Shown here one piece after another: positions 24,955 to 49,724 of a stretch of DNA of 64,000 nt; within the stretch, counting starts at the first letter, position 1, and the number at the start of each line of letters is the position of its first letter. The DNA is from an uncultured Actinomycetes bacterium (GTDB lineage Bacteria; Actinomycetota; Thermoleophilia; RBG-16-64-13). Where the stretch lies: the NCBI GenBank assembly GCA_963814415.1, contig CAWFCN010000002.1, positions 487,111-551,110 of the forward strand, in the 5' to 3' direction. Below the pieces are notes generated by a model, which did no database searches, was not told where the DNA came from, and was given only the letters and a program-made list of their open reading frames with translations. Position numbers and translations under genes: made by a program.

Positions 24955-25349
24955 GTGGTGGGCCGCCGCTCTTGCCCGGAACCAGTCAAAGAGGCCTTAC
25001 CGAATACCTCCACCATCTTCTCCTTCACCGCTCCAAGACCACCCGTCTGGAGCAGCTCGATCATCGGTGTCCGGGCCACGAACACAAGGTCCCACTCACC
25101 CTTGAGAGACTCACTGCACGAACGGAACGCTTCACGCAAGACCCGCTTCACACTGTTCCGCTCAACCGCTCCGCCCAACCGCTTCGAAACAGAGAAACCG
25201 ACCCTCTGGCCGGAGTCCTCGCCCGACACGCTGTTCCCTGGCCGCTCGAAGTAGTATAGAACTAGGTACTTGTTCGCAACACTCCGGCCCGCGCGGTAGA
25301 CGCGGGTGAAGTCCTCAGAGCGCGTCAGCCGGCCTCGGGACCGATTCAC
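24951..25349 (-). CDS. rnpA: Ribonuclease P protein component
   Basis: RnpA motifs (RLTRSEDFTRVY...VGFSVSKRLGGAVERNSVKRVLRE). Confidence 0.85.
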   Translation of the reverse strand: MNRSRGRLTRSEDFTRVYRAGRSVANKYLVLYYFERPGNSVSGEDSGQRVGFSVSKRLGGAVERNSVKRVLREAFRSCSESLKGEWDLVFVARTPMIELLQTGGLGAVKEKMVEVFGKASLTGSGQERRPTT

Positions 25350-25354
25350 ACTGG

Positions 25355-25489
25355 CTAGGCTGACAGCCGCTTACGGCCCTTCAAGCGTCTGCGCTTCAGC
25401 ACGGCACGCCCTGCGCGCGTGCTCATCCGCTCCCTGAAACCATGGGTCTTTTTGCGCTTGCGCTTGTTCGGCTGGTAGGTCCTCTTCAC
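25355..25489 (-). CDS. rpmH: 50S ribosomal protein L34
   Basis: Not in the ORF track (44 aa). Translated by hand as [47 protein letters not shown] start. Confidence 0.85.
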
Positions 25490-25734
25490 ATTTCCTCACT
25501 TGCGTCCGGACAGCGGTGCTATCACGGCCGGTCGAACGGCACGCTTACACCGACTCTAAGTGCGATCTCCGTCCCCAAGACAGCTTCCTGTCTCACCCGG
25601 GACACCGCTCCGCGAAATGCCTATACGGGCGAGCGCCGCAGTATACCAAGCGTCAGGAGCGCCCGTCAATCGCCCAAACTCGCCACCTGCGGGCCCACAA
25701 TTCCCCCTCACGCTCTAAGCGTACACAGGCCCCC

Positions 25735-26199
25735 TGTGGATACTGTGGAAAGCACTGTCTCCAGCCGCACGATTCGCCTAGGACGCGCCATGCGCCTGTG
25801 GACTGCTACCAATACCCGAACGCCACTGGCGCACCCTATCTGAGCAGCAGCACCCTTCGGCCAGCGGCTATGTTCCCGTCACGCCCCCTCGAGGTTCGTA
25901 CTCCGAACAAACTCGCCATCTCTTGAGTAACCCGAGAAGCGAAGAAACCTACATTACGCAGGCAAACCACAGACACCGAAATGGATTTCCCCATTTTCAA
26001 CAGAAAACTGGGACTATGCGGCCTTACTGTTCCAGGCTTCTCCACGTTTTGCACAGGTGTGGATAGTCCTGTGGATATCCTCCATCTTCGACCTGCAAAC
26101 CTACGGTCTTTGCAACGAGAAACCCTAAGCGCCAAACCCAGACCACAGCCCAAAGCACTGCACTTTCCGCACATCAACTGGTCCAACCCCTGTGGAAAA
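25735..26199. promoter_or_regulatory. oriC: Putative oriC DnaA-box cluster (upstream part of a bipartite origin)
   Basis: Six TGTGGAnAn boxes, all in the same orientation: TGTGGATAC 25735, TGTGGAAAG 25744, TGTGGACTG 25797, TGTGGATAG 26058, TGTGGATAT 26070 and TGTGGAAAA 26191. An AT-richer stretch lies near 25978-26020. Location is the classic rpmH-dnaA interval. Confidence 0.6.
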
Positions 26200-27064
26200 A
26201 CACCCTTCCTCTGGGTACAATGGCGCCGGGGTTCCGACACACAATCTCCTAGCCGATCCGCGAGGCCACTGTCGACCTGTGACCGCTGAAGACTCATCCC
26301 CATCCCGACGCAAACCGGCGCCCGTATCCCACGACGCCCCAACTCCCGGCGACCCGCCGCGTATCGCCGTCTACTCTGATCCTCACTCACCGCCCACGGT
26401 AGTCTCGATCGTAGACAGACAACTCGCGGAGGGTCCGCTGCCCGAACTCATCGAAGCCATCGCGGTCAGAGCCCACACCCTAGCCCAAGAGCAGGGGGGG
26501 CGTCTGCCCCTGGGTGTCTTTCGAGAACTCGTCTCGAATCTGGTCCATGCTTCCTTCGCCGATGTCATCATCACCATCCTGGATAGTGGGAACACCGTTC
26601 GCGTCAGCGACCGTGGACCGGGTATACCCGACAAGCAGGCCGCCCTCCGGCCAGGCTTCACCTCTGCCGACGCGTCCGCCCGCCGCTATATACGGGGCGT
26701 GGGCTCCGGTTTCTCGGTAGTGACCGAGACTTTGCGCACCCTGGGGGGCACGCTCGAGATAGAGGACAACCTCGGGACGGGCACGGTCGTCACCGCGCGT
26801 GTATCGGCCGACAGCAACGACCTTCTCACGCCTACGCCGCTCCCGTCATATAATCTCCCCGAGCGGCAACTCAAGACTCTGCTTCTGACGGTCGAGCTCG
26901 CTCCAGTCGGTCCCACTCGCGTCGCCCAGGAGCTAGGCGTGTCCACCTCAACCGCCTACCGAGACCTTGTCTCCCTGGAAGAGGCGGGCTATGTCGCTTC
27001 TGGAGACTCCGGCCACCGTTCGGTCACAGACCAAGGGTTGGCATATCTGACTAGCGTTCTATAA
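26192..27064 (+). CDS. GHKL/HATPase_c-like ATP-binding protein with a C-terminal winged-helix DNA-binding domain; start uncertain
   Basis: Bergerat-fold motifs (TVRVSDRGPGIP; GVGSGFSVVTETLRTLGGTLEIEDNLGTGTVVTARV) followed by an HTH (TRVAQELGVSTSTAYRDLVSLEEAGYV). The stop lies 15 nt before the dnaA GTG, and the annotated GTG start sits inside a DnaA box. Confidence 0.5.
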   Translation: MEKHPSSGYNGAGVPTHNLLADPRGHCRPVTAEDSSPSRRKPAPVSHDAPTPGDPPRIAVYSDPHSPPTVVSIVDRQLAEGPLPELIEAIAVRAHTLAQEQGGRLPLGVFRELVSNLVHASFADVIITILDSGNTVRVSDRGPGIPDKQAALRPGFTSADASARRYIRGVGSGFSVVTETLRTLGGTLEIEDNLGTGTVVTARVSADSNDLLTPTPLPSYNLPERQLKTLLLTVELAPVGPTRVAQELGVSTSTAYRDLVSLEEAGYVASGDSGHRSVTDQGLAYLTSVL

Positions 27065-27079
27065 GGGCGGGGAGAAGCA

Positions 27080-28576
27080 GTGGTGGAAACAGCAAGCGGA
27101 GACCCGATCTGGGAACAGGCCCTGCGCCTGATCGCCGACCAGGTCAATGAAGGGACCTTCCGCATCTGGTTCGAGCCCACGGTAGGGCTTGGTTTGGCCA
27201 ACGGCACCTACTCTGTGGGGGTCGCTTCCGACTTCGCCCGCGACTGGATCGACTCCCGCTTCAGGACGATAATGTCCGATGCTGTCTCCCAAGTTGTCGG
27301 CCAGCCCACCGCCTTCGACATAGTCGTCTCTCCGGTTCTTTCTCACGCCCCGTCTGTTGACCCATCCGCCGCGTTCACTGCGTCCAACGACCCTCCGGCC
27401 TCGGCCGCTAACCCCCCGGCCTCTCCTGCGCACCAACGCGCGGGGGTTTCTGGGCCCTCTAACAACTCGACCAGGCAGGCTAGCTTCAGACCCGCTGTCG
27501 CCAGTCCCGCATCCGCCTCACCGGCGCACAACAACGACCCGGTCGCGGCCGCCGGCCTCATGGCCAAGAACACCTTTGACAGTTTTGTGGTCGGCCAATC
27601 TAACCGTTTCGCCCACGCCGCTTCCTTGGCGGCTGCCGAGACCCCGGGTACTCAGTACAACCCCTTGTTCATCTACGGAGGCGTCGGCCTCGGCAAGACC
27701 CACCTCCTTCAGGCCATCGGCAACTACGCCCTTCGCAATCACCCCGGCATGAAAGTCCGCTGCCTCTCTGTAGAGACCTTCACAAACGACTTCATCAATT
27801 CTCTTCGTGACGACAGCATCGAGGGGTTCAAGAACAGATACCGCACAATCGATGTGCTCCTCATCGACGACATCCAGTTCCTACAGAAGAAGGAGCAGAC
27901 TCAAGAGGAGTTCTTTCACACCTTCAATGCTCTCTACGACGCTCAGAAGCAGATCGTCATCACTTCTGACAGACCCCCCAAGGGTCTCGCTACGCTCGAA
28001 GACCGTCTCGTCTCCAGGTTCGAGTGGGGACTCATCACGGACATACAACCTCCAGATCTTGAGACTCGGGTTGCGATCCTCCGCAAGAAGGTACGAGCTG
28101 AAGCTATCCCCCTCACCGACGACGACGTCCTTATGCTCATAGCGTCTCGTGTGCCTACGAACATCCGCGAGCTCGAGGGTTGTCTCACCCGCGTGGTCGC
28201 CTTCTCATCCTTCACAAAACGCCCTATCGACGTCCCTCTTGCAAACGAGGTTCTCAAGGACATTCCCGAGACACCCACATCCCGCATCACCATCGACATG
28301 ATCCTCTCGGCCGTTGCGGAATCCACGGGTGTATCTATTACGGAGATAACTGGTGACAAACGCTCGCGGTCGGTTGTCGAAAGCCGCCACCTTGCCATGT
28401 ACTTGACTCGCGAGCTCACCGACGCGAGCCTTCCAAAAATCGGCGACCACATCGGCGGTCGTGACCACACCACTGTCCTTCATGCGGTCGACAAGGTTTC
28501 GAAGCTTCTCCGTGAGGACCGCGACCTATACAACCGTGTCCAGCGTCTCACCGCCAAACTCAAGAGTGCGCGGTGA
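27080..28576 (+). CDS. dnaA: Chromosomal replication initiator protein DnaA
   Basis: Domain I, a long Pro/Ala/Ser-rich domain II, AAA+ Walker A GGVGLGKTHLLQAIGN, sensor motifs and a C-terminal DNA-binding domain. GGGGAGAAG RBS. Confidence 0.95.
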   Translation: MVETASGDPIWEQALRLIADQVNEGTFRIWFEPTVGLGLANGTYSVGVASDFARDWIDSRFRTIMSDAVSQVVGQPTAFDIVVSPVLSHAPSVDPSAAFTASNDPPASAANPPASPAHQRAGVSGPSNNSTRQASFRPAVASPASASPAHNNDPVAAAGLMAKNTFDSFVVGQSNRFAHAASLAAAETPGTQYNPLFIYGGVGLGKTHLLQAIGNYALRNHPGMKVRCLSVETFTNDFINSLRDDSIEGFKNRYRTIDVLLIDDIQFLQKKEQTQEEFFHTFNALYDAQKQIVITSDRPPKGLATLEDRLVSRFEWGLITDIQPPDLETRVAILRKKVRAEAIPLTDDDVLMLIASRVPTNIRELEGCLTRVVAFSSFTKRPIDVPLANEVLKDIPETPTSRITIDMILSAVAESTGVSITEITGDKRSRSVVESRHLAMYLTRELTDASLPKIGDHIGGRDHTTVLHAVDKVSKLLREDRDLYNRVQRLTAKLKSAR

Positions 28577-28685
28577 TCACTTACCCACACCCCCCTGTAG
28601 ATACCCGGTGCACCGAGTGTTCACATCCGGGCCTTCTCGCAGTTCTTCTTTCTGGGCGTCCCACTTCTCCGGACTTCTCCCCATT

Positions 28686-28820
28686 CTCTCCACAGGACGG
28701 TTTTTCCATCTCGTCTTCTCGACCCGCTGTCTCTGCACTCGACAAGCACTCTCCACATCTTCCACAATCCCTATTACACCGACTATATTTCTCACTAGAG
28801 ATTAATAATGGTAATAGCGA
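28686..28820. promoter_or_regulatory. oriC: dnaA-dnaN intergenic origin element: reversed DnaA boxes plus an AT-rich DNA-unwinding-element candidate
   Basis: CTCTCCACA at 28686 and 28749, TCTTCCACA at 28758 (7/9 to TTATCCACA, opposite orientation to the upstream cluster). The AT-rich 35-mer ctatatttctcactagagattaataatggtaatag at 28783-28817 stands out in a 65% GC genome. Confidence 0.5.
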
Positions 28821-28856
28821 GCAGCCTGCCCTCCAACGCAAGACTGAGGAGTCGCG

Positions 28857-29960
28857 ATGAGACTGATCACCACCAAACAAGCCCTGGTCGACTGTCTGGG
28901 GATCGTCGGCAAAGCGGTATCGTCGCGCACATCCATACAGGTGCTTTCAGGCGTGCTCCTCGAAGCGACAGACGAAGGCATCGTCCTGTCAGCCACCGAC
29001 ATGGAGATATCGTTGCGCGCTCCTCTGGCCGGCAAGGTGGAGCGCTCTGGCTCACTCGTGGTCCCAGCTCGTATCGCCGCAGATATTGCGAGAAGTCTTC
29101 CCGTGGGGGAAGTGATTCTTGAGCAGTCCCCGGGTGAGACCCAGATGGAGATCAGGGCCGCCGGCTCTGTCTTCGATCTTCATTCACTACCCGCCAGCGA
29201 CTTTCCACAATTGCCCGTCTGCTTGGGCGACCGGTTCGAAGTGAGCAAGGCTGCCTTCGTGGAGACTGTCGACCGGGTGGCTCCATCGGCCTCCAAGGAT
29301 GAGACTCGCCCGGTCCTCACCGGAGTCCTGATTCAATTCAACAAGACGTCTGTGCGGATGGTCGCCACAGACAGCTATCGCCTCAGCGTCAAAGAGACCC
29401 CACTCCAGTCCTCTGTCGCTTCCTCCGTCGAAGTCATAATCCCCGCGAGGACCCTCCTCGAACTTTCGAGAATCGCCGCCGCGGCGCCCGACGAGACTAT
29501 CTCCATCTTGCCTACCGAGAACCAGATACTCTTTGAGGTCGGTGGCATATCTCTGGTCTCTCGCCTTATCGACGGCCAGTTCCCCAACTACCGCCAGTTG
29601 ATCCCCGAGACGTTTGACCACGAGGTACCCGTCGACCATGACGAACTCCTCGAAGCCGTGCGTCGTGTGGGCCTACTCGCGCAGAAGAACACGCCCATCC
29701 GTATGCGGTTCAGCGACAACACCCTGTCGGTCTCCGCCGAATCTCAAGACGTCGGCAAAGCCAAAGAGACCATCCCCGTCCAGTACACGGCCGAAGAGAT
29801 CGAGATAGGTTTCAACCCAGAGTTTCTCGAAGCGGGTGTCGCCTCTGTCAAGGAGCAGGTCGTCTATCTGCGCTTCATCAGCCCTCTTCGGCCCGGGCTG
29901 GTAAAGGGCGCTGGTGACGACTTCATGTACTTGGTCATGCCCATCAGGCTGAACGACTAG
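28857..29960 (+). CDS. dnaN: DNA polymerase III beta sliding clamp
   Basis: 367 aa with three beta-clamp domains. GAGGAG RBS. Confidence 0.95.
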   Translation: MRLITTKQALVDCLGIVGKAVSSRTSIQVLSGVLLEATDEGIVLSATDMEISLRAPLAGKVERSGSLVVPARIAADIARSLPVGEVILEQSPGETQMEIRAAGSVFDLHSLPASDFPQLPVCLGDRFEVSKAAFVETVDRVAPSASKDETRPVLTGVLIQFNKTSVRMVATDSYRLSVKETPLQSSVASSVEVIIPARTLLELSRIAAAAPDETISILPTENQILFEVGGISLVSRLIDGQFPNYRQLIPETFDHEVPVDHDELLEAVRRVGLLAQKNTPIRMRFSDNTLSVSAESQDVGKAKETIPVQYTAEEIEIGFNPEFLEAGVASVKEQVVYLRFISPLRPGLVKGAGDDFMYLVMPIRLND

Positions 29961-29961
29961 C

Positions 29962-30225
29962 ATGGGCGCGCCTGCCGATCGCTCGTCGGCAGCGCAGCCG
30001 CCCACACCGGTCGCTGTCGAGCTGCCCATCACCCTCGGCCAATTCGTCAAGGTGGCCGGTCTCGCCGGCACCGGAGGAGAGGCCAAGCACCTCGTCCTAT
30101 CCGGTGAGGTCACGGTGAACCAGCAGAGCGAAATGCGCAGGGGACGCAACCTGGTCTTTGGAGACATTGTCGCGGTTGCCGATAGCAGCCCGGTCCTGGT
30201 CGCGCCCGACACAAACAAGGCGTAG
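29962..30225 (+). CDS. S4-domain RNA-binding protein (YaaA-like), between dnaN and recF
   Basis: 87 aa; LGQFVKVAGLAGTGGEAKHLVLSGEVTVN is an S4-like fold. Conserved synteny. Confidence 0.6.
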   Translation: MGAPADRSSAAQPPTPVAVELPITLGQFVKVAGLAGTGGEAKHLVLSGEVTVNQQSEMRRGRNLVFGDIVAVADSSPVLVAPDTNKA

Positions 30226-30255: not shown

Positions 30256-31332
30256 ATGTCGAATCTCCGCTCGAAGGAATCGCTCGTTGTCGAGTTCGGC
30301 CCGGGTCTGAACATACTGGCGGGACCCAACGGCGCCGGCAAGACCACCGTCCTGGAGGCAGCGGTCCTGGCCCTCGACGGCGAGCAGTTACGCCCTGGGT
30401 CCTTGCGCGATCTCATCAGCCACGGCAAAGATCACTTGAGAGTCGAGCTAGACCTCGAGGAGGCGGGCGCTTCGGTCACAGCCGCTGCGGCATATTCGAG
30501 AGACGGCGAGCGACGCTTGAGCGCGGGCGATCTACCGTTGGCCGACAACTCCAGGTGGCGCGAGGCCATTCCCGTGCGCACCTTCATTCCCGACGACCTC
30601 CGGCTCATCAAAGGGAGCCCACGAAGGCGCAGGGCCTATCTGGACACTCTGGCCGGCAGGCGAGACCCCGCGTATCCGGTAGTGCTGAAACAATACGACG
30701 AGGCGCTGGCCCAACGAAACACTTTGCTTCGCTCCACTTGGGGCGGAGGCGACGACGCTGAGTTCGTTCCTTGGGAGAAGATGTTGGCCGAAAGCGGATT
30801 GGCCGTATGCGAACGGAGGTCCGCGACGTTGGCGGGGTTCATAGACGCATTCCAAGAGATGCACCAGGATCTTACGGCGGAACCGGTCGACGCTTTCCGC
30901 TTGACGTACAGAACCAACGCCGCGGGACTAGACGCCGAGAACTACCAGGCACGTCTGGCTGAGATGAGGAGCGCAGACCGCCAGCGGACATTCACACACC
31001 TCGGACCGCATAGGGACGACTTCAGGTTGATGCGGGCCGGACTTGACATGCGTGACTGTGCGTCTCAGGGGGAACAGAGGGCGGCTCTGCTCACCCTCGT
31101 CCTAGCAGAATGGGACAGCCTGCGAAGCGCCGGCCCCACACCGCTGCTCCTCTTGGACGACGTGATGAGTGAGCTGGACGAGACCCGTCGCCGAGCCCTA
31201 CTCAGGATCATAAGGCGAGGCGGACAAGTACTGGTCACCACGACTGACTTGCGCTACTTCTCGCAAGAGGAGCTTGACGCGGCCAGGGTGATCGAGTTGT
31301 CGCAGGGAGAGCCGATCGATGCCCGGCCCTGA
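30256..31332 (+). CDS. recF: DNA replication and repair protein RecF
   Basis: FGPGLNILAGPNGAGKTTVLEA Walker A, ABC signature and D-loop (LLLLDDVMSELD). Confidence 0.9.
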   Translation: MSNLRSKESLVVEFGPGLNILAGPNGAGKTTVLEAAVLALDGEQLRPGSLRDLISHGKDHLRVELDLEEAGASVTAAAAYSRDGERRLSAGDLPLADNSRWREAIPVRTFIPDDLRLIKGSPRRRRAYLDTLAGRRDPAYPVVLKQYDEALAQRNTLLRSTWGGGDDAEFVPWEKMLAESGLAVCERRSATLAGFIDAFQEMHQDLTAEPVDAFRLTYRTNAAGLDAENYQARLAEMRSADRQRTFTHLGPHRDDFRLMRAGLDMRDCASQGEQRAALLTLVLAEWDSLRSAGPTPLLLLDDVMSELDETRRRALLRIIRRGGQVLVTTTDLRYFSQEELDAARVIELSQGEPIDARP

Positions 31333-31876
31333 AGACTTCGACCGCGTCGGTAGTCTCTTGGGCGAGTTCTGCGAAGCCGCGGCTACGCCTGCCCCGGTGG
31401 ATGGCCAGGCGAACGACGAACAGCGCTCCGTAGGGCGCGGTGCCAGGACGACCCCTGGCGATGCGTCGCGGGCACTCGCCGGAGTGTGGCCCGCCGTCGT
31501 CGGAGCGGAGGTGGCCGCCAATGCTGCGCCGGTGCAACTCAAGGCAGGCAGGCTGGTGGTCAGCACCTCCTCGAGCGTTTGGGCCCAGACTCTGCAGTAC
31601 ATGAGCGTCGACCTGGCCGTGCGCCTGAACGAGCGTCTGGGAGAGGGAGTCGTGCGGCAGATAGTCTTCCGCCACGCGGGTTGGGAAGAGCGGCCGCCGG
31701 GAGAGACGGCCGACCGTCAGAGGCGTGAGACGGATGAAGCCGGGCCCTTGTCGCCGGAACAACAACAGGCCCTCGACGACCTCGACCGAGTGGATCTTCC
31801 CCCTGCCGTCCGTGGCCAGATCGAGCGTGCTATGCGGGCATCATTTGTCCGCACACAGCGAGATTCCGTTCGCTGA
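31319..31876 (+). CDS. dciA: DUF721 (DciA-like) protein; start overlaps the recF 3' end
   Basis: WPAVVGAEVAANAAPVQLKAGRLVVSTSSSVWAQTLQYMSVDLAVRLNERLGEGVVRQIVFR matches the DUF721 core (established family pattern). Confidence 0.6.
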   Translation: MPGPEDFDRVGSLLGEFCEAAATPAPVDGQANDEQRSVGRGARTTPGDASRALAGVWPAVVGAEVAANAAPVQLKAGRLVVSTSSSVWAQTLQYMSVDLAVRLNERLGEGVVRQIVFRHAGWEERPPGETADRQRRETDEAGPLSPEQQQALDDLDRVDLPPAVRGQIERAMRASFVRTQRDSVR

Positions 31877-39989: not shown

Positions 39990-40066
<77 letters not shown>

Positions 40067-40103
40067 CTATTCTCACGTCGCCACGCTCCTGCTCGATCCG
40101 CTT

Positions 40104-40179
40104 GGGGGATTAGCTCAGTTGGGAGAGCGCCGCCTTTGCACGGCGGAGGTCGCCGGTTCGACCCCGGTATCCTCCACCT
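40104..40179 (+). tRNA. tRNA-Ala (anticodon TGC) with the G3:U70 identity pair
   Basis: GGGGGATTAGCTCAGTTGGGAGAGCGCCGCCTTTGCACGGCGGAGGTCGCCGGTTCGACCCCGGTATCCTCCACC. Confidence 0.9.
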
Positions 40180-47365: not shown

Positions 47366-48516
47366 AGAAGATCGCTGTGCTCTACAGCGGGGGCCGTCAT
47401 TGGGGCGGCATCGAGACGTATCTTGCGAACCTCTTCAAACTGTACGACAGGAAGCAGATGCAGCTGGTCCTCATCAGCCTGGGGGAGTGGGATCTGACCA
47501 GGGCTTTCCGTCAAGCAGGTCTGTCACCTCTCTTAAGAGTGTTGCCGGGCAGGAGGATAAGGCCCAAGACGATCCTTGATCTGTCGCGACTCATCCGGGC
47601 CGAGCACCTCGGGCTGGTCGTCTCGCATGGGACTGTAGCGAACGCCTACGCGAGGCTAGCCGCCCTGGTGGCGAGAGCACCGAGTCTAGTGGTCGTACAC
47701 AGCGATATGGCGCTCGACTATCCGTCGAGCACGCGCTGGGCCTACAAGTTCTCGGACCGATGCCTACGTCGCTTGACCACCAGATACGTGGCCGTCTCCT
47801 GGAACTTGAAGTCGAAGATGGTCAAGTCGGGAATCAATGGCGACGACGTTACAGTCATATACAACGGGGTGAACACCGCGGGCAGAATGCCAAGACCGAT
47901 CCGAGTCTCATCCGGCGGACCCGCCGCGGGCGAAACAGGCGAATCGTGGGCCGGCGGCGAGACTGGAGAGTCAGAGGAGGCGATCCTACTCGCCTCCGTG
48001 GGGCGACTGCACCCGGTGAAGAACTTCGATGGCCTGATCAGGGCCATGTCCCTTCTGCCGGCCCGGGTGCGGTTGACGGTATGGGGCGACGGAGGCGAGA
48101 GGGAGAAGCTCCGGGCCATTGTGGATTCCCTGGCGCTAGGCGATAGGGTCACACTTCCTGGCGAGTCGCAGAACATGGGGGACGCGCTGGAAGGTGTGGA
48201 CATCTACGTTCAACCATCGAAGAGCGAAGGATTCGGTTTCGCAGTCGCTGAGGCCATGCTGCACGGCAAGCCTGTAGTGGTCACGCCTTGCGGAGGGCTG
48301 CCGGAGCAAGTGGATAACGGAGTGACAGGCTTGGTGGCCGACGATTACAGCCCCGAGGCCCTGGCCAGGGCGATAGTGCCCCTCATCAACAATCACTCTC
48401 TGGCGGCGAGACTGGGCGAGGCGGGTAGGCGCGCAGCGCAAGAGAAGTGTTCGATGCAGAAGTGGCTCGCAGATACCACGAAAGTCTTATGCGATACTGC
48501 ACGAGGAACCACATGA
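47362..48516 (+). CDS. Glycosyltransferase family 4 (GT-B, group 1)
   Basis: C-terminal GT1 domain (LASVGRLHPVKNFDGLIRA...QPSKSEGFGFAVAEAMLHGKPVV). Contains an unusual GETGESWAGGETGES insert. ATGA coupling. Confidence 0.8.
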   Translation: MKKIAVLYSGGRHWGGIETYLANLFKLYDRKQMQLVLISLGEWDLTRAFRQAGLSPLLRVLPGRRIRPKTILDLSRLIRAEHLGLVVSHGTVANAYARLAALVARAPSLVVVHSDMALDYPSSTRWAYKFSDRCLRRLTTRYVAVSWNLKSKMVKSGINGDDVTVIYNGVNTAGRMPRPIRVSSGGPAAGETGESWAGGETGESEEAILLASVGRLHPVKNFDGLIRAMSLLPARVRLTVWGDGGEREKLRAIVDSLALGDRVTLPGESQNMGDALEGVDIYVQPSKSEGFGFAVAEAMLHGKPVVVTPCGGLPEQVDNGVTGLVADDYSPEALARAIVPLINNHSLAARLGEAGRRAAQEKCSMQKWLADTTKVLCDTARGTT

Positions 48517-49724
48517 GCAAGATGATCCAACAAAGAGAGATCGTTTGTCTGTCATCGCTTGACTGGGACGTTTGTTGGACCAGCAAGCAACAGATCATGT
48601 ACAGGCTCTCTGAATCCAATCGGGTGCTCTATATCGAGGAACCGGTGACCATGCTGGCGCCTTTGGTCGTGCCCGCTCACTGGAGGCGATGGAAAGCGCT
48701 CATTCCGCGGATTCGTCGGCAGGGCGCGCAACTCTGGACCCTCACCCTCCCTCCGCTCCTTCCGTTCGGCAACAAGAGTCGGAGTATCAACAGCCTCAAC
48801 CAGGCCGTCGTGGCGAGCTACGTGCGCTGGGCCATGAAGAAGCTGTCGTTCTCGAGTGACTACATACTGTGGACATATCTTCCCCAGACCCTGGCTGTGC
48901 TCCACCGTCTGCGCCGCGCGAGTGGAGGCAGTGCGCCCGCACTCGCCATATACCATTGCGTGGATGAACATTCGGCCTTCCCGGGTCACTTCATCTCACC
49001 TGAGCTGGTGAAGGCCTACGACGACGCACTGACCAAAGAAGTCGACCTGGTAATCACCACTTCTGAGAGTCTCCGCGAATCGCGCGAGGCTCTCAACCCG
49101 CGCACCTACACGGTGCTCAACGCGGCCGATGTGGAGCTCTTCAACCAGGCGCTCACCCCAGACCTCAGTGAGCCTGCCGACCTGGTAGGTATCCCGTCGC
49201 CTCGACTGGGCGTGGTGGGCGTCCATGACCATCGACTTGACGTAGATGCGCTGGAAGCACTGGAACAGGCCGACTCTTCGTGGCAGGTCTTGCTCATCGG
49301 GCCCCTGCGGGTCAGTCATGCGGACGACATCAGGCTGCGACGCCTTTCGAGCGTTCATGTGCTTGGCGCGAAACCACGGCAAGAACTCCCGTCGTACCTC
49401 AAGGGGTTGAGCGCCGCTCTTATCCCGTATAAGCCTGGTGAACTGACTCGCAACATCTTCCCCCTGAAGCTGTTTGAATACTTGGCGGCCGGACTGCCCG
49501 TGATCGCAGGTGGGCTGCCGGAACTGAGGCGCTACCCCGGTATGGTGTGGCTGGCCGAGAGCGCGAAGGACTACCCTGGACTTGTCCGTGCTGCTATCGT
49601 CGAGGACACTGCCGCCAAACGCGCCGAGAGAGTCTCTCTGGCGGCGGAAAACTCCTGGGATCGCCGGGTAGCAGATATCTCGGCTCTGGTAGAGGCAGCG
49701 CTAGCGAGGAATGCTCAGCGCTAG
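48513..49724 (+). CDS. Glycosyltransferase family 4-like
   Basis: EX7E-like motif NIFPLKLFEYLAAGLPVIAG. ATG 48513 (MSKMIQQ) overlaps the upstream stop (ATGA). Confidence 0.7.
   Translation: MSKMIQQREIVCLSSLDWDVCWTSKQQIMYRLSESNRVLYIEEPVTMLAPLVVPAHWRRWKALIPRIRRQGAQLWTLTLPPLLPFGNKSRSINSLNQAVVASYVRWAMKKLSFSSDYILWTYLPQTLAVLHRLRRASGGSAPALAIYHCVDEHSAFPGHFISPELVKAYDDALTKEVDLVITTSESLRESREALNPRTYTVLNAADVELFNQALTPDLSEPADLVGIPSPRLGVVGVHDHRLDVDALEALEQADSSWQVLLIGPLRVSHADDIRLRRLSSVHVLGAKPRQELPSYLKGLSAALIPYKPGELTRNIFPLKLFEYLAAGLPVIAGGLPELRRYPGMVWLAESAKDYPGLVRAAIVEDTAAKRAERVSLAAENSWDRRVADISALVEAALARNAQR

Follow-up and report, generated by a model that had tools for sequence, protein, structure and literature searches.

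Divided replication origins have two clusters of DnaA boxes with a spacer gene, most often dnaA, lying between them and the unwinding element in one of the two (PMC4285127). In Bacillus subtilis (incA/incB and incC) and in C. difficile (oriC1/oriC2) the clusters lie on both sides of dnaA in an rnpA-rpmH-dnaA-dnaN context, with the unwinding element on the dnaN side only. Helicobacter pylori also has two sub-regions, oriC1 and oriC2, split by dnaA. For all three species an order of box, GC-containing spacer, DnaA-trios and AT-rich DNA has been described, and from these publications we have taken the trio definition and the strand convention (PMC8287927, PMC7561715, PMC8235120). Here, we analyze a 64-kb stretch of contig CAWFCN010000002.1 (the window, in whose positions all coordinates are given) that carries dnaA and dnaN. 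This stretch probably holds the region in which an uncultured Thermoleophilia bacterium (RBG-16-64-13 / Gaiellales-like) starts replication of its chromosome. The spacer between dnaA and dnaN is very probably the unwinding module of this oriC, with melting best placed at 28771-28817.

The locus shares its overall layout with the systems described above. Its gene order is the classic rnpA-rpmH / dnaA-dnaN-recF-dciA-gyrB (Pfam), plus one additional gene between rpmH and dnaA, and the coding strand switches at 25.4-26.2 kb. Two box clusters, at 25735-26199 and 28581-28766, lie on either side of dnaA, and the unwinding element is found in one of them, on the dnaN side as in B. subtilis and C. difficile. 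As in these two species, a box pair, fused or abutting, is followed by a short spacer containing GC, 5'-CTA-type triplets and an AT-rich stretch. Unlike there, the clusters are separated by two genes, one of them encoding an ATPase with a helix-turn-helix (HTH) domain, a promoter for dnaN overlaps the proximal box, and the genome has a GC content of 61%. Gene order, strand switch, a skew minimum in the window, two box arrays and a single unwinding element together make strong evidence for an origin, as far as evidence from sequence only can go. An oriC linked to dnaA is the expected type of origin, and finding it in a new lineage is ordinary rather than surprising.

Results

The dnaA-dnaN spacer combines conserved boxes with a predicted unwinding element

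For comparison, a scan with the DnaA protein, limited to one genome per species, gave 80 loci, all from metagenome-assembled genomes and labelled Thermoleophilia, Gaiellales or Actinomycetota; the closest DnaA (RBG_16_64_13) is 89% identical. Searches by tblastn with the window proteins yielded three groups, namely 36 close relatives, one distant clade and a Gaiella clade that is without the ATPase-HTH gene and has a distance of ~300-350 bp between rpmH and dnaA. The dnaA-dnaN spacer (IG2, 28577-28856, 280 bp) was aligned from 33 genomes and the region between rpmH and the ATPase-HTH gene (IG1, 25490-26278, 789 bp) from 29, and conservation of boxes was counted over the 32 and 28 relatives, respectively. 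A box was taken as kept when it had at most three mismatches at the aligned position, unless two are stated. The DnaA proteins of these 28-32 genomes are only 60-89% identical. In the literature library searched, there was no origin paper on Thermoleophilia or Gaiella.

Six box positions are conserved in IG2 (28581, 28596, ~28618, 28686, 28749 and 28758). The strand of a box is given as the strand on which it reads TTATCCACA. The distal boxes (28581-28694) are c1 (TTACCCACA, 28581, plus strand), c2 (TGTAGATAC, 28596, reversed), c3 (TGTTCACAT, 28618, weak and ambiguous in orientation) and c5 (CTCTCCACA, 28686, plus strand). They are kept in 25, 28, 28 and 28 of the 32 relatives, against 0-9 for control positions; a neighbouring TTCTCCCCA at 28675 is not conserved (9/32). 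On the proximal side, c6 (CTCTCCACA, 28749) and c7 (TCTTCCACA, 28758) form an abutting pair on the plus strand (28749-28766), both reading TTATCCACA towards the AT-rich DNA. Box c7 has two mismatches in the window and is kept in every relative, in 15 of them as exact TCTTCCACA, and the degenerate c6, often TGTTAACA, is kept in 25. Box c5 lies 72 nt upstream of c7; at this distance from the pair (72 bp) it resembles the distal incC box, which acts through a loop from at least 44 bp upstream (PMC6669920). An earlier note on this DNA had listed CTCTCCACA twice and TCTTCCACA in this spacer. All three are present, at 28686, 28749 and 28758, but the reversed box at 28596 and the box at ~28618 had been overlooked.

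The pair is followed by a predicted AT-rich DNA unwinding element (28771-28817). In nearest-neighbour calculations no other 45-mer of the window is as unstable as 28771-28815 (-50.0 kcal/mol, z = 5.2; the runner-up has z 3.1). In 64 of 67 related loci, the Gaiella clade included, the least stable 45-mer of the ~9.5-kb locus ends at most 120 nt upstream of dnaN. The 35-nt stretch of very low GC that had been pointed out before is indeed the lowest-GC 35-mer of the window (28782-28816, 22.9% GC, the next having 31.4%), but it had been placed immediately before dnaN, which starts 40 nt later at 28857. The conserved core of IG2 consists of a degenerate box, TCTTCCACA, 4-5 nt, CTA-YTA-C, CTATATTTCT, an AT-rich stretch ending in TAATAG, and GAGGAG. 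The Gaiella clade shares this core layout, with CGTCTTCCCC, GTCGTCCACA, CTCC, CTA... and AT-rich DNA, and the spacer layout is repeated in ~65 related Thermoleophilia/Gaiellales genomes.

The clustering of DnaA boxes and the associated sequence features are not due to chance. The window contains 16 copies of TGTGGANA where 5.55 are expected, a number that was reached in none of 100 shuffles, and 9 of its 29 TCCACA hexamers fall into IG1 and IG2, which make up 1.7% of the bases. Boxes with at most two mismatches number eight in IG1 (1.29 expected) and six in IG2 (0.46 expected). In the relatives, box densities are 8.3 and 13.7 per kb, compared to 1.7 per kb in coding DNA. The most frequent conserved forms are TTTTCCACA, TTATCCACA, GTATCCACA and TCTTCCACA, and the box consensus in this lineage is TT(A/T)TCCACA. 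The consensus in H. pylori is instead TCATTCACA, and the high-affinity box of Mycobacterium and Streptomyces is TTGTCCACA, in place of which TTTTCCACA, TTATCCACA and TCTTCCACA are conserved here (PMC4285127). A further group of seven 9-mers with at most two mismatches occupies ~850 bp at 48120-48967. This region reads as protein-coding, and hence we consider the group at 48.1-49.0 kb probably a chance occurrence.

Trio-like triplets flank the predicted unwinding element

Four nucleotides after c7, beyond a spacer ATCC, two DnaA-trio-like triplets are found on the minus strand (28771-28776; top strand 5'-CTA TTA-3', bottom strand 3'-GAT AAT-5'). The distance from box to first triplet is 4-5 nt in the relatives, and CTAYTAC at +4 from c7 is conserved in most of them. 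This conserved position and sequence argue for a function of the triplets. The arrangement of R1 and the DNA unwinding element (DUE) in E. coli served as one guide to box orientation. We have inferred the orientation of the c6/c7 pair from this layout and from the statement that oligomer formation requires a 5' tail bearing trios (PMC8287927). On this basis c7, with its two mismatches, is oriented to the unwinding element, and c6 abuts it. The locus resembles the basal unwinding system (Richardson/Pelliciari/Murray) in box orientation, a proximal box of at most two mismatches, a tandem partner that is fused or no more than 3 bp away, a spacer of at most 16 bp, a box-proximal GAT and AT-rich DNA beyond.

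In contrast to the basal unwinding system, the locus also carries a trio-like run on the other strand, at the far edge of the element. At the dnaN side, top-strand TA(A/G) triplets in mirror orientation are found at 28803-28817 (plus strand, TAA TAA TGG TAA TAG). The run is interrupted in the window; uninterrupted runs of at least three triplets occur in 18 of 32 sequences and of at least four in 11. They start 37-48 nt after c7, mostly at 37-41 (L008, L010, L011, L015, L016, L017 and others at +37 to +41), and are longer than in shuffled sequences at p < 0.01 in 12/32. These mirror triplets sit on the strand opposite to that expected for the c6/c7 pair, and in the IG2 alignment no conserved box lies to their right. 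The sequences CTATTAC (28770) and GTAATAG (28811) could be read as the arms of a hairpin or cruciform. Exact complementarity over at least 6 nt is found in only 13/32 sequences and covariation is inconsistent, and we therefore treat the complementarity as a by-product of the mirrored trio-like triplets.

A ten-box array extends to the predicted promoter of the dnaA operon

The IG1 alignment resolves into four features: the rpmH promoter, a distal box group, a variable-length spacer and a rigid proximal unit. Ten box positions are conserved between 25735 and 26199, and it is highly likely that this array binds DnaA. The distal group (25735-25805, minus strand) comprises b1 (TGTGGATAC, 25735), b2 (TGTGGAAAG, 25744, abutting b1) and b3 (TGTGGACTG, 25797), kept in 22/28, 21/28 and 24/28 relatives, with control positions at 0-3/28. 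Two weak abutting boxes on the plus strand, b4 (ATTTCCCCA) and b5 (TTTTCAACA), lie at 25985-26002 within the conserved block TtTCCCCAtTTTCAACAGaAAa and are kept in 28/28 and 27/28. Position 7 of b4 is a C, which marks low-affinity boxes favoured by ATP-bound DnaA (PMC8235120).

A convergent module of four boxes follows at 26038-26078, with b6 (TTCTCCACG, 26038) and b7 (TTTTGCACA, 26047) on the plus strand and b8 (TGTGGATAG, 26058) and b9 (TGTGGATAT, 26070) on the minus strand; the start-to-start distances are 9, 11 and 12 nt. With at most two mismatches, b7 and b9 are present in all 28 relatives. The b7-b8-b9 module, together with CCTGCAAA, is shared by both the Gaiella and the distant clade and hence predates the point at which the ATPase-HTH gene was gained or lost. 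The last box, b10 (TGTGGAAAA, 26191-26199), overlaps the -35 element of a promoter predicted by scanning for the ATPase-HTH/dnaA operon (TGGAAA-17-TACAAT, 26191-26223, plus strand, -10 at 26218-26223). Its sequence is TTTTCCACA in 26/28 relatives, and in 27/29 a TACAAT or TAGAAT lies precisely 17 nt after it.

The proximal spacings are the same within 1-2 nt in ~27/32 genomes (11 and 12 nt in the module, 121 nt between b9 and b10, 195 nt between the block at 25994 and b10), although the DNA between these boxes is conserved only partly. Such near-invariant spacing over 25985-26223 suggests one structured nucleoprotein complex. Three relatives (L016, L017 and L036) have 1.4-1.6 kb of additional DNA that separates the distal boxes from the rpmH promoter. 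The array stays with the dnaA-side operon in spite of this insertion beside rpmH, and we therefore assign it to that operon. The insert of L016 (944-2182) contains a 412-codon open reading frame with an integrase core (rve) domain, which suggests a transposase or insertion element.

The earlier note had described six TGTGGAnAn boxes in a single orientation between rpmH and dnaA. Their positions are correct and all six are present, but the consensus fits only five of them, TGTGGACTG being the exception, and four conserved boxes of opposite orientation (25985, 25994, 26038 and 26047) had been missed. The tandem pair at 26058 and 26070, 3 nt apart, is confirmed. That the cluster lies directly upstream of dnaA is not the case, since a 261-codon gene (26279-27064) intervenes; the cluster therefore sits upstream of a two-gene unit. 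The comparison with a Bacillus-type split origin is supported in placing the origin region here and the unwinding element beside dnaN; the clusters are, however, separated by more than dnaA, at a distance of 2.3 kb that includes two genes.

A conserved ATPase-HTH gene precedes dnaA

The gene between the box array and dnaA (26279-27064, plus strand) encodes a protein of 261 amino acids with a GHKL (HATPase_c) ATPase domain and a C-terminal winged HTH (Pfam HATPase_c 2.7e-13, HTH_IclR 3.4e-6). An identical protein (P0001) in a public collection confirms the GTG start at 26279. The stop codon lies 15 nt before the dnaA start and no terminator is predicted between the two genes, which suggests that they are co-transcribed. 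By tblastn the gene is found directly 5' of dnaA in the 36 close relatives (41-76% identity) and in the distant clade (36-41%), and it adjoins dnaA upstream in every related locus that carries it. The ATP-binding motifs N, G1 and G2 (E83/N87, D111-G113-G115, G140-G142-G144) and the HTH are invariant in 28 homologues.

Homologues number 753 at E <= 0.001, none of them characterised and all annotated only in generic terms, for instance as "anti-sigma regulatory factor (Ser/Thr protein kinase)" or "ATP-binding protein". Pfam detected no phospho-acceptor (HisKA) domain. An AlphaFold model (predicted local distance difference test score, pLDDT, 73) matched in fold only the catalytic domains of histidine kinases and an uncharacterised C. 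diphtheriae protein (3lmm). Searches for a functional name in NCBIfam, by PDB sequence search and with Foldseek likewise gave only generic histidine-kinase ATPase-domain matches and 3lmm. Given that box array, gene and dnaA are found in this fixed order, a role in the control of initiation is a reasonable guess.

Neighbouring genes and strand composition

The leftward block (minus strand) comprises rpmH, rnpA, yidD and yidC, the last three assigned by Pfam. Its first gene, rpmH (ribosomal protein L34, 25355-25489), was recognized by translation and is 84-98% identical in relatives (tblastn). A promoter for it is predicted at 25640-25669 on the minus strand (TTGACG-18-TATACT, 10/12 matches in the promoter scan), and the promoter block GAAGTATACAAG...CGTCAA is kept in 29 relatives. 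Rightward on the plus strand follow the ATPase-HTH gene, dnaA, dnaN, recF, a DciA-family gene and gyrB (Pfam, open reading frames). The dnaA product (27080-28576; Bac_DnaA 4.7e-73, Bac_DnaA_C, DnaA_N) has intact Walker A and B motifs and retains the box-binding signature IGGRDHTTV. The gene for the beta clamp, dnaN (28857-29960, plus strand), encodes three DNA_pol3_beta domains and is preceded by the Shine-Dalgarno sequence GAGGAG at 28848, which is conserved in the IG2 alignment. The DciA-family gene (31319-31876, plus strand; PF05258, 1.1e-17) lies between recF and gyrB and implies helicase loading of the DciA type, not by DnaC/DnaI. Rfam at E <= 1 gave no non-coding RNA across 25300-29000. 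Genes for tRNA-Ile(GAT) and tRNA-Ala(TGC) are located 38 nt apart at 39990-40178 (plus strand). This pair is usual within 16S-23S spacers; no rRNA match was obtained anywhere in the 64-kb window.

For the 64-kb window alone, the cumulative GC-skew has its minimum at 30102. Between 22000 and 30000 the plus strand is strongly C-rich (skew -0.14 to -0.20, compared to about +/-0.05 elsewhere), with genes on both strands. The steep fall in this block ends at the cumulative minimum, and we found no explanation for it. At 4-fold sites a preference of the coding strand for C-ending codons dominates the skew. In 37/38 of the genomes that carry the ATPase-HTH gene, this gene and dnaA exceed dnaN and recF in plus-strand C-richness at these sites (mean difference 0.20), which is weak evidence for a compositional switch between dnaA and dnaN.

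Discussion

From these data a mechanism of initiation can be proposed. DnaA would bind the conserved boxes of IG2, and the abutting c6/c7 pair would direct it towards the adjacent DNA. There, beyond c7, it would meet a 4-nt spacer, two trio-like triplets (3'-GAT AAT-5') and the ~45-bp AT-rich stretch at 28771-28817, which a DnaA-ATP oligomer would melt. Loading of the helicase would then be aided by the DciA protein encoded nearby, unlike in B. subtilis, where DnaD, DnaB and DnaI serve as loading factors. The ten boxes of IG1 would form a second DnaA-binding array on the promoter of the ATPase-HTH/dnaA operon. A box over the -35 element implies at least a control by DnaA of its own synthesis, and the array may also assist the origin through a loop that reaches the spacer, as in Bacillus or Helicobacter.

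Several observations weigh against an origin that opens in the dnaA-dnaN spacer. As published, the rule by which the basal unwinding system is recognized in sequences demands at least three consecutive 3'-NAN-5' triplets (consensus GAT) within 16 bp of a box (PMC8287927). The spacer of 4 nt lies within this distance, but the run in the window is two (CTA TTA). The run is also two in 26/32 sequences, reaches three in only five, and is no better than in shuffles (p ~0.3), and hence membership in the basal unwinding system is not established. In B. subtilis there are six trios (PMC8235120), compared to two consensus trios here. Furthermore, the skew minimum of the window does not coincide with the unwinding element but lies 1.3 kb further right, and it is the C-rich block of 22-30 kb that dominates local skew. 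The difference between dnaA and dnaN at 4-fold sites does not hold in the Gaiella clade and could stem from the codon use of individual genes; it is confounded by codon bias and we give it little weight. Finally, the most conserved block of IG2 also fits a -35/-10 promoter of dnaN, and its conservation may partly reflect transcription.

The alternative that survives best concerns the role of the upstream array. In a true bipartite origin of the Bacillus or Helicobacter type both clusters would be required, DnaA would bridge them, the 2.3 kb between would be looped out and melting would occur on the dnaN side only. Two conserved clusters flank dnaA and the single unwinding element is in the downstream one, as such an origin would have it. 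Ten rigidly spaced, conserved sites over ~210 bp exceed the needs of a simple repressor site, and the b7-b9 module predates the split of the clades with and without the ATPase-HTH gene. However, b10 falls exactly on the operon's -35 element, the array moves together with the promoter, and a variable-length spacer separates b1-b3 from the remaining boxes. Autoregulation could explain the array and, given its position on the operon promoter, is the minimal reading; B. subtilis also has regulatory DnaA-box clusters outside its oriC. Other systems of DnaA autoregulation likewise have a box on the -35 element of the dnaA promoter, with further boxes upstream. Here, in contrast, there are ten rigid sites over ~210 bp plus a distal group, and the promoter serves dnaA together with a second gene that precedes it. 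We regard a strictly bipartite origin as doubtful, and the wider proposal, that the array forms one half of the origin and is either required or stimulatory, as tentative.

The comparison within the phylum also weighs against a bipartite origin. The experimentally studied actinobacterial origins, those of Mycobacterium and Streptomyces, lie in the dnaA-dnaN spacer. They share this location with the origin predicted here, together with recF and a DciA-family gene downstream. That of Streptomyces is classed as continuous (PMC4285127). With its own boxes and unwinding element, IG2 could in principle be self-sufficient in the same way. The spacer is 280 bp here and up to ~950 bp in Streptomyces, and, unlike the continuous actinobacterial oriC, the locus has a large conserved ten-box array upstream of the dnaA operon. 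The phylogenetically remote H. pylori has fused ts1/ts2 boxes, a GC-rich spacer and 4-5 functional trios, and melting begins there a few nt past the proximal box (PMC8235120).

A more elaborate possibility is an origin of three parts, in which the ATPase-HTH protein acts as a lineage-specific, ATP-dependent regulator of initiation or of DnaA and mirror triplets operate at both edges of the unwinding element. We consider this unlikely. If true, the mirror triplets could enable both strands to be engaged, by initiator filaments or by a second factor.

The IG2 core might also be merely a DnaA-regulated dnaN promoter with an AT-rich 5' leader, with replication starting elsewhere. The promoter scan found a sigma-70-type element, TCCACA-17-TATATT (28761-28789, plus strand), that overlaps c7 and the trio-like triplets. 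A TAnnnT at exactly 17 nt after the box hexamer is present in 26/33 sequences (background rate 0.029), and the chance-level length of the trio-like run also speaks for a mere promoter. Against this, box pair, CTA triplet and AT-rich stretch are all retained in the Gaiella clade although no -10-like hexamer was seen at its IG2 core, and a dnaN promoter therefore cannot be the whole explanation. Six conserved boxes over 190 bp exceed the needs of a promoter, the CTAYTAC conserved between -35 and -10 is unusual in promoter spacers, in 64/67 genomes no part of the locus is thermodynamically more extreme than the AT-rich stretch, and both the switch in gene orientation and the skew minimum are local. 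An element that acts in dnaN transcription only is thus very unlikely. Since the promoter overlaps c7, occupancy by DnaA probably also affects dnaN transcription.

It is most improbable that the DNA unwinds in IG1, on the rpmH side, with the IG2 boxes as auxiliary sites. IG1 does have more boxes, the switch of coding strand and a moderately AT-rich conserved block (25938-26017, 43.8% GC, the third-lowest 80-mer of the window), but its least stable 45-mer is no outlier (-61.4 kcal/mol, z ~2, compared to -50.0 and 5.2 in IG2), none of its box pairs is followed by an AT-rich stretch, and the difference at 4-fold sites, weak as it is, falls between dnaA and dnaN.

The predicted origin departs from the textbook cases in the two-gene spacer, in the promoters over key boxes on both sides and in a short trio run with mirror triplets at the far edge of the unwinding element. 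Unlike those of B. subtilis and C. difficile, it is a prediction from the DNA sequence. For a widespread uncultured lineage of soil and sediment, the analysis provides an origin annotation with parts predicted at nucleotide level. Box pair, short spacer, GAT-type triplet and AT-rich DNA occur in this order in deep-branching Actinomycetota too, even though the trio rule fails there. The ATPase-HTH gene is fixed beside dnaA in two deep clades, and its product is a candidate regulator of replication.

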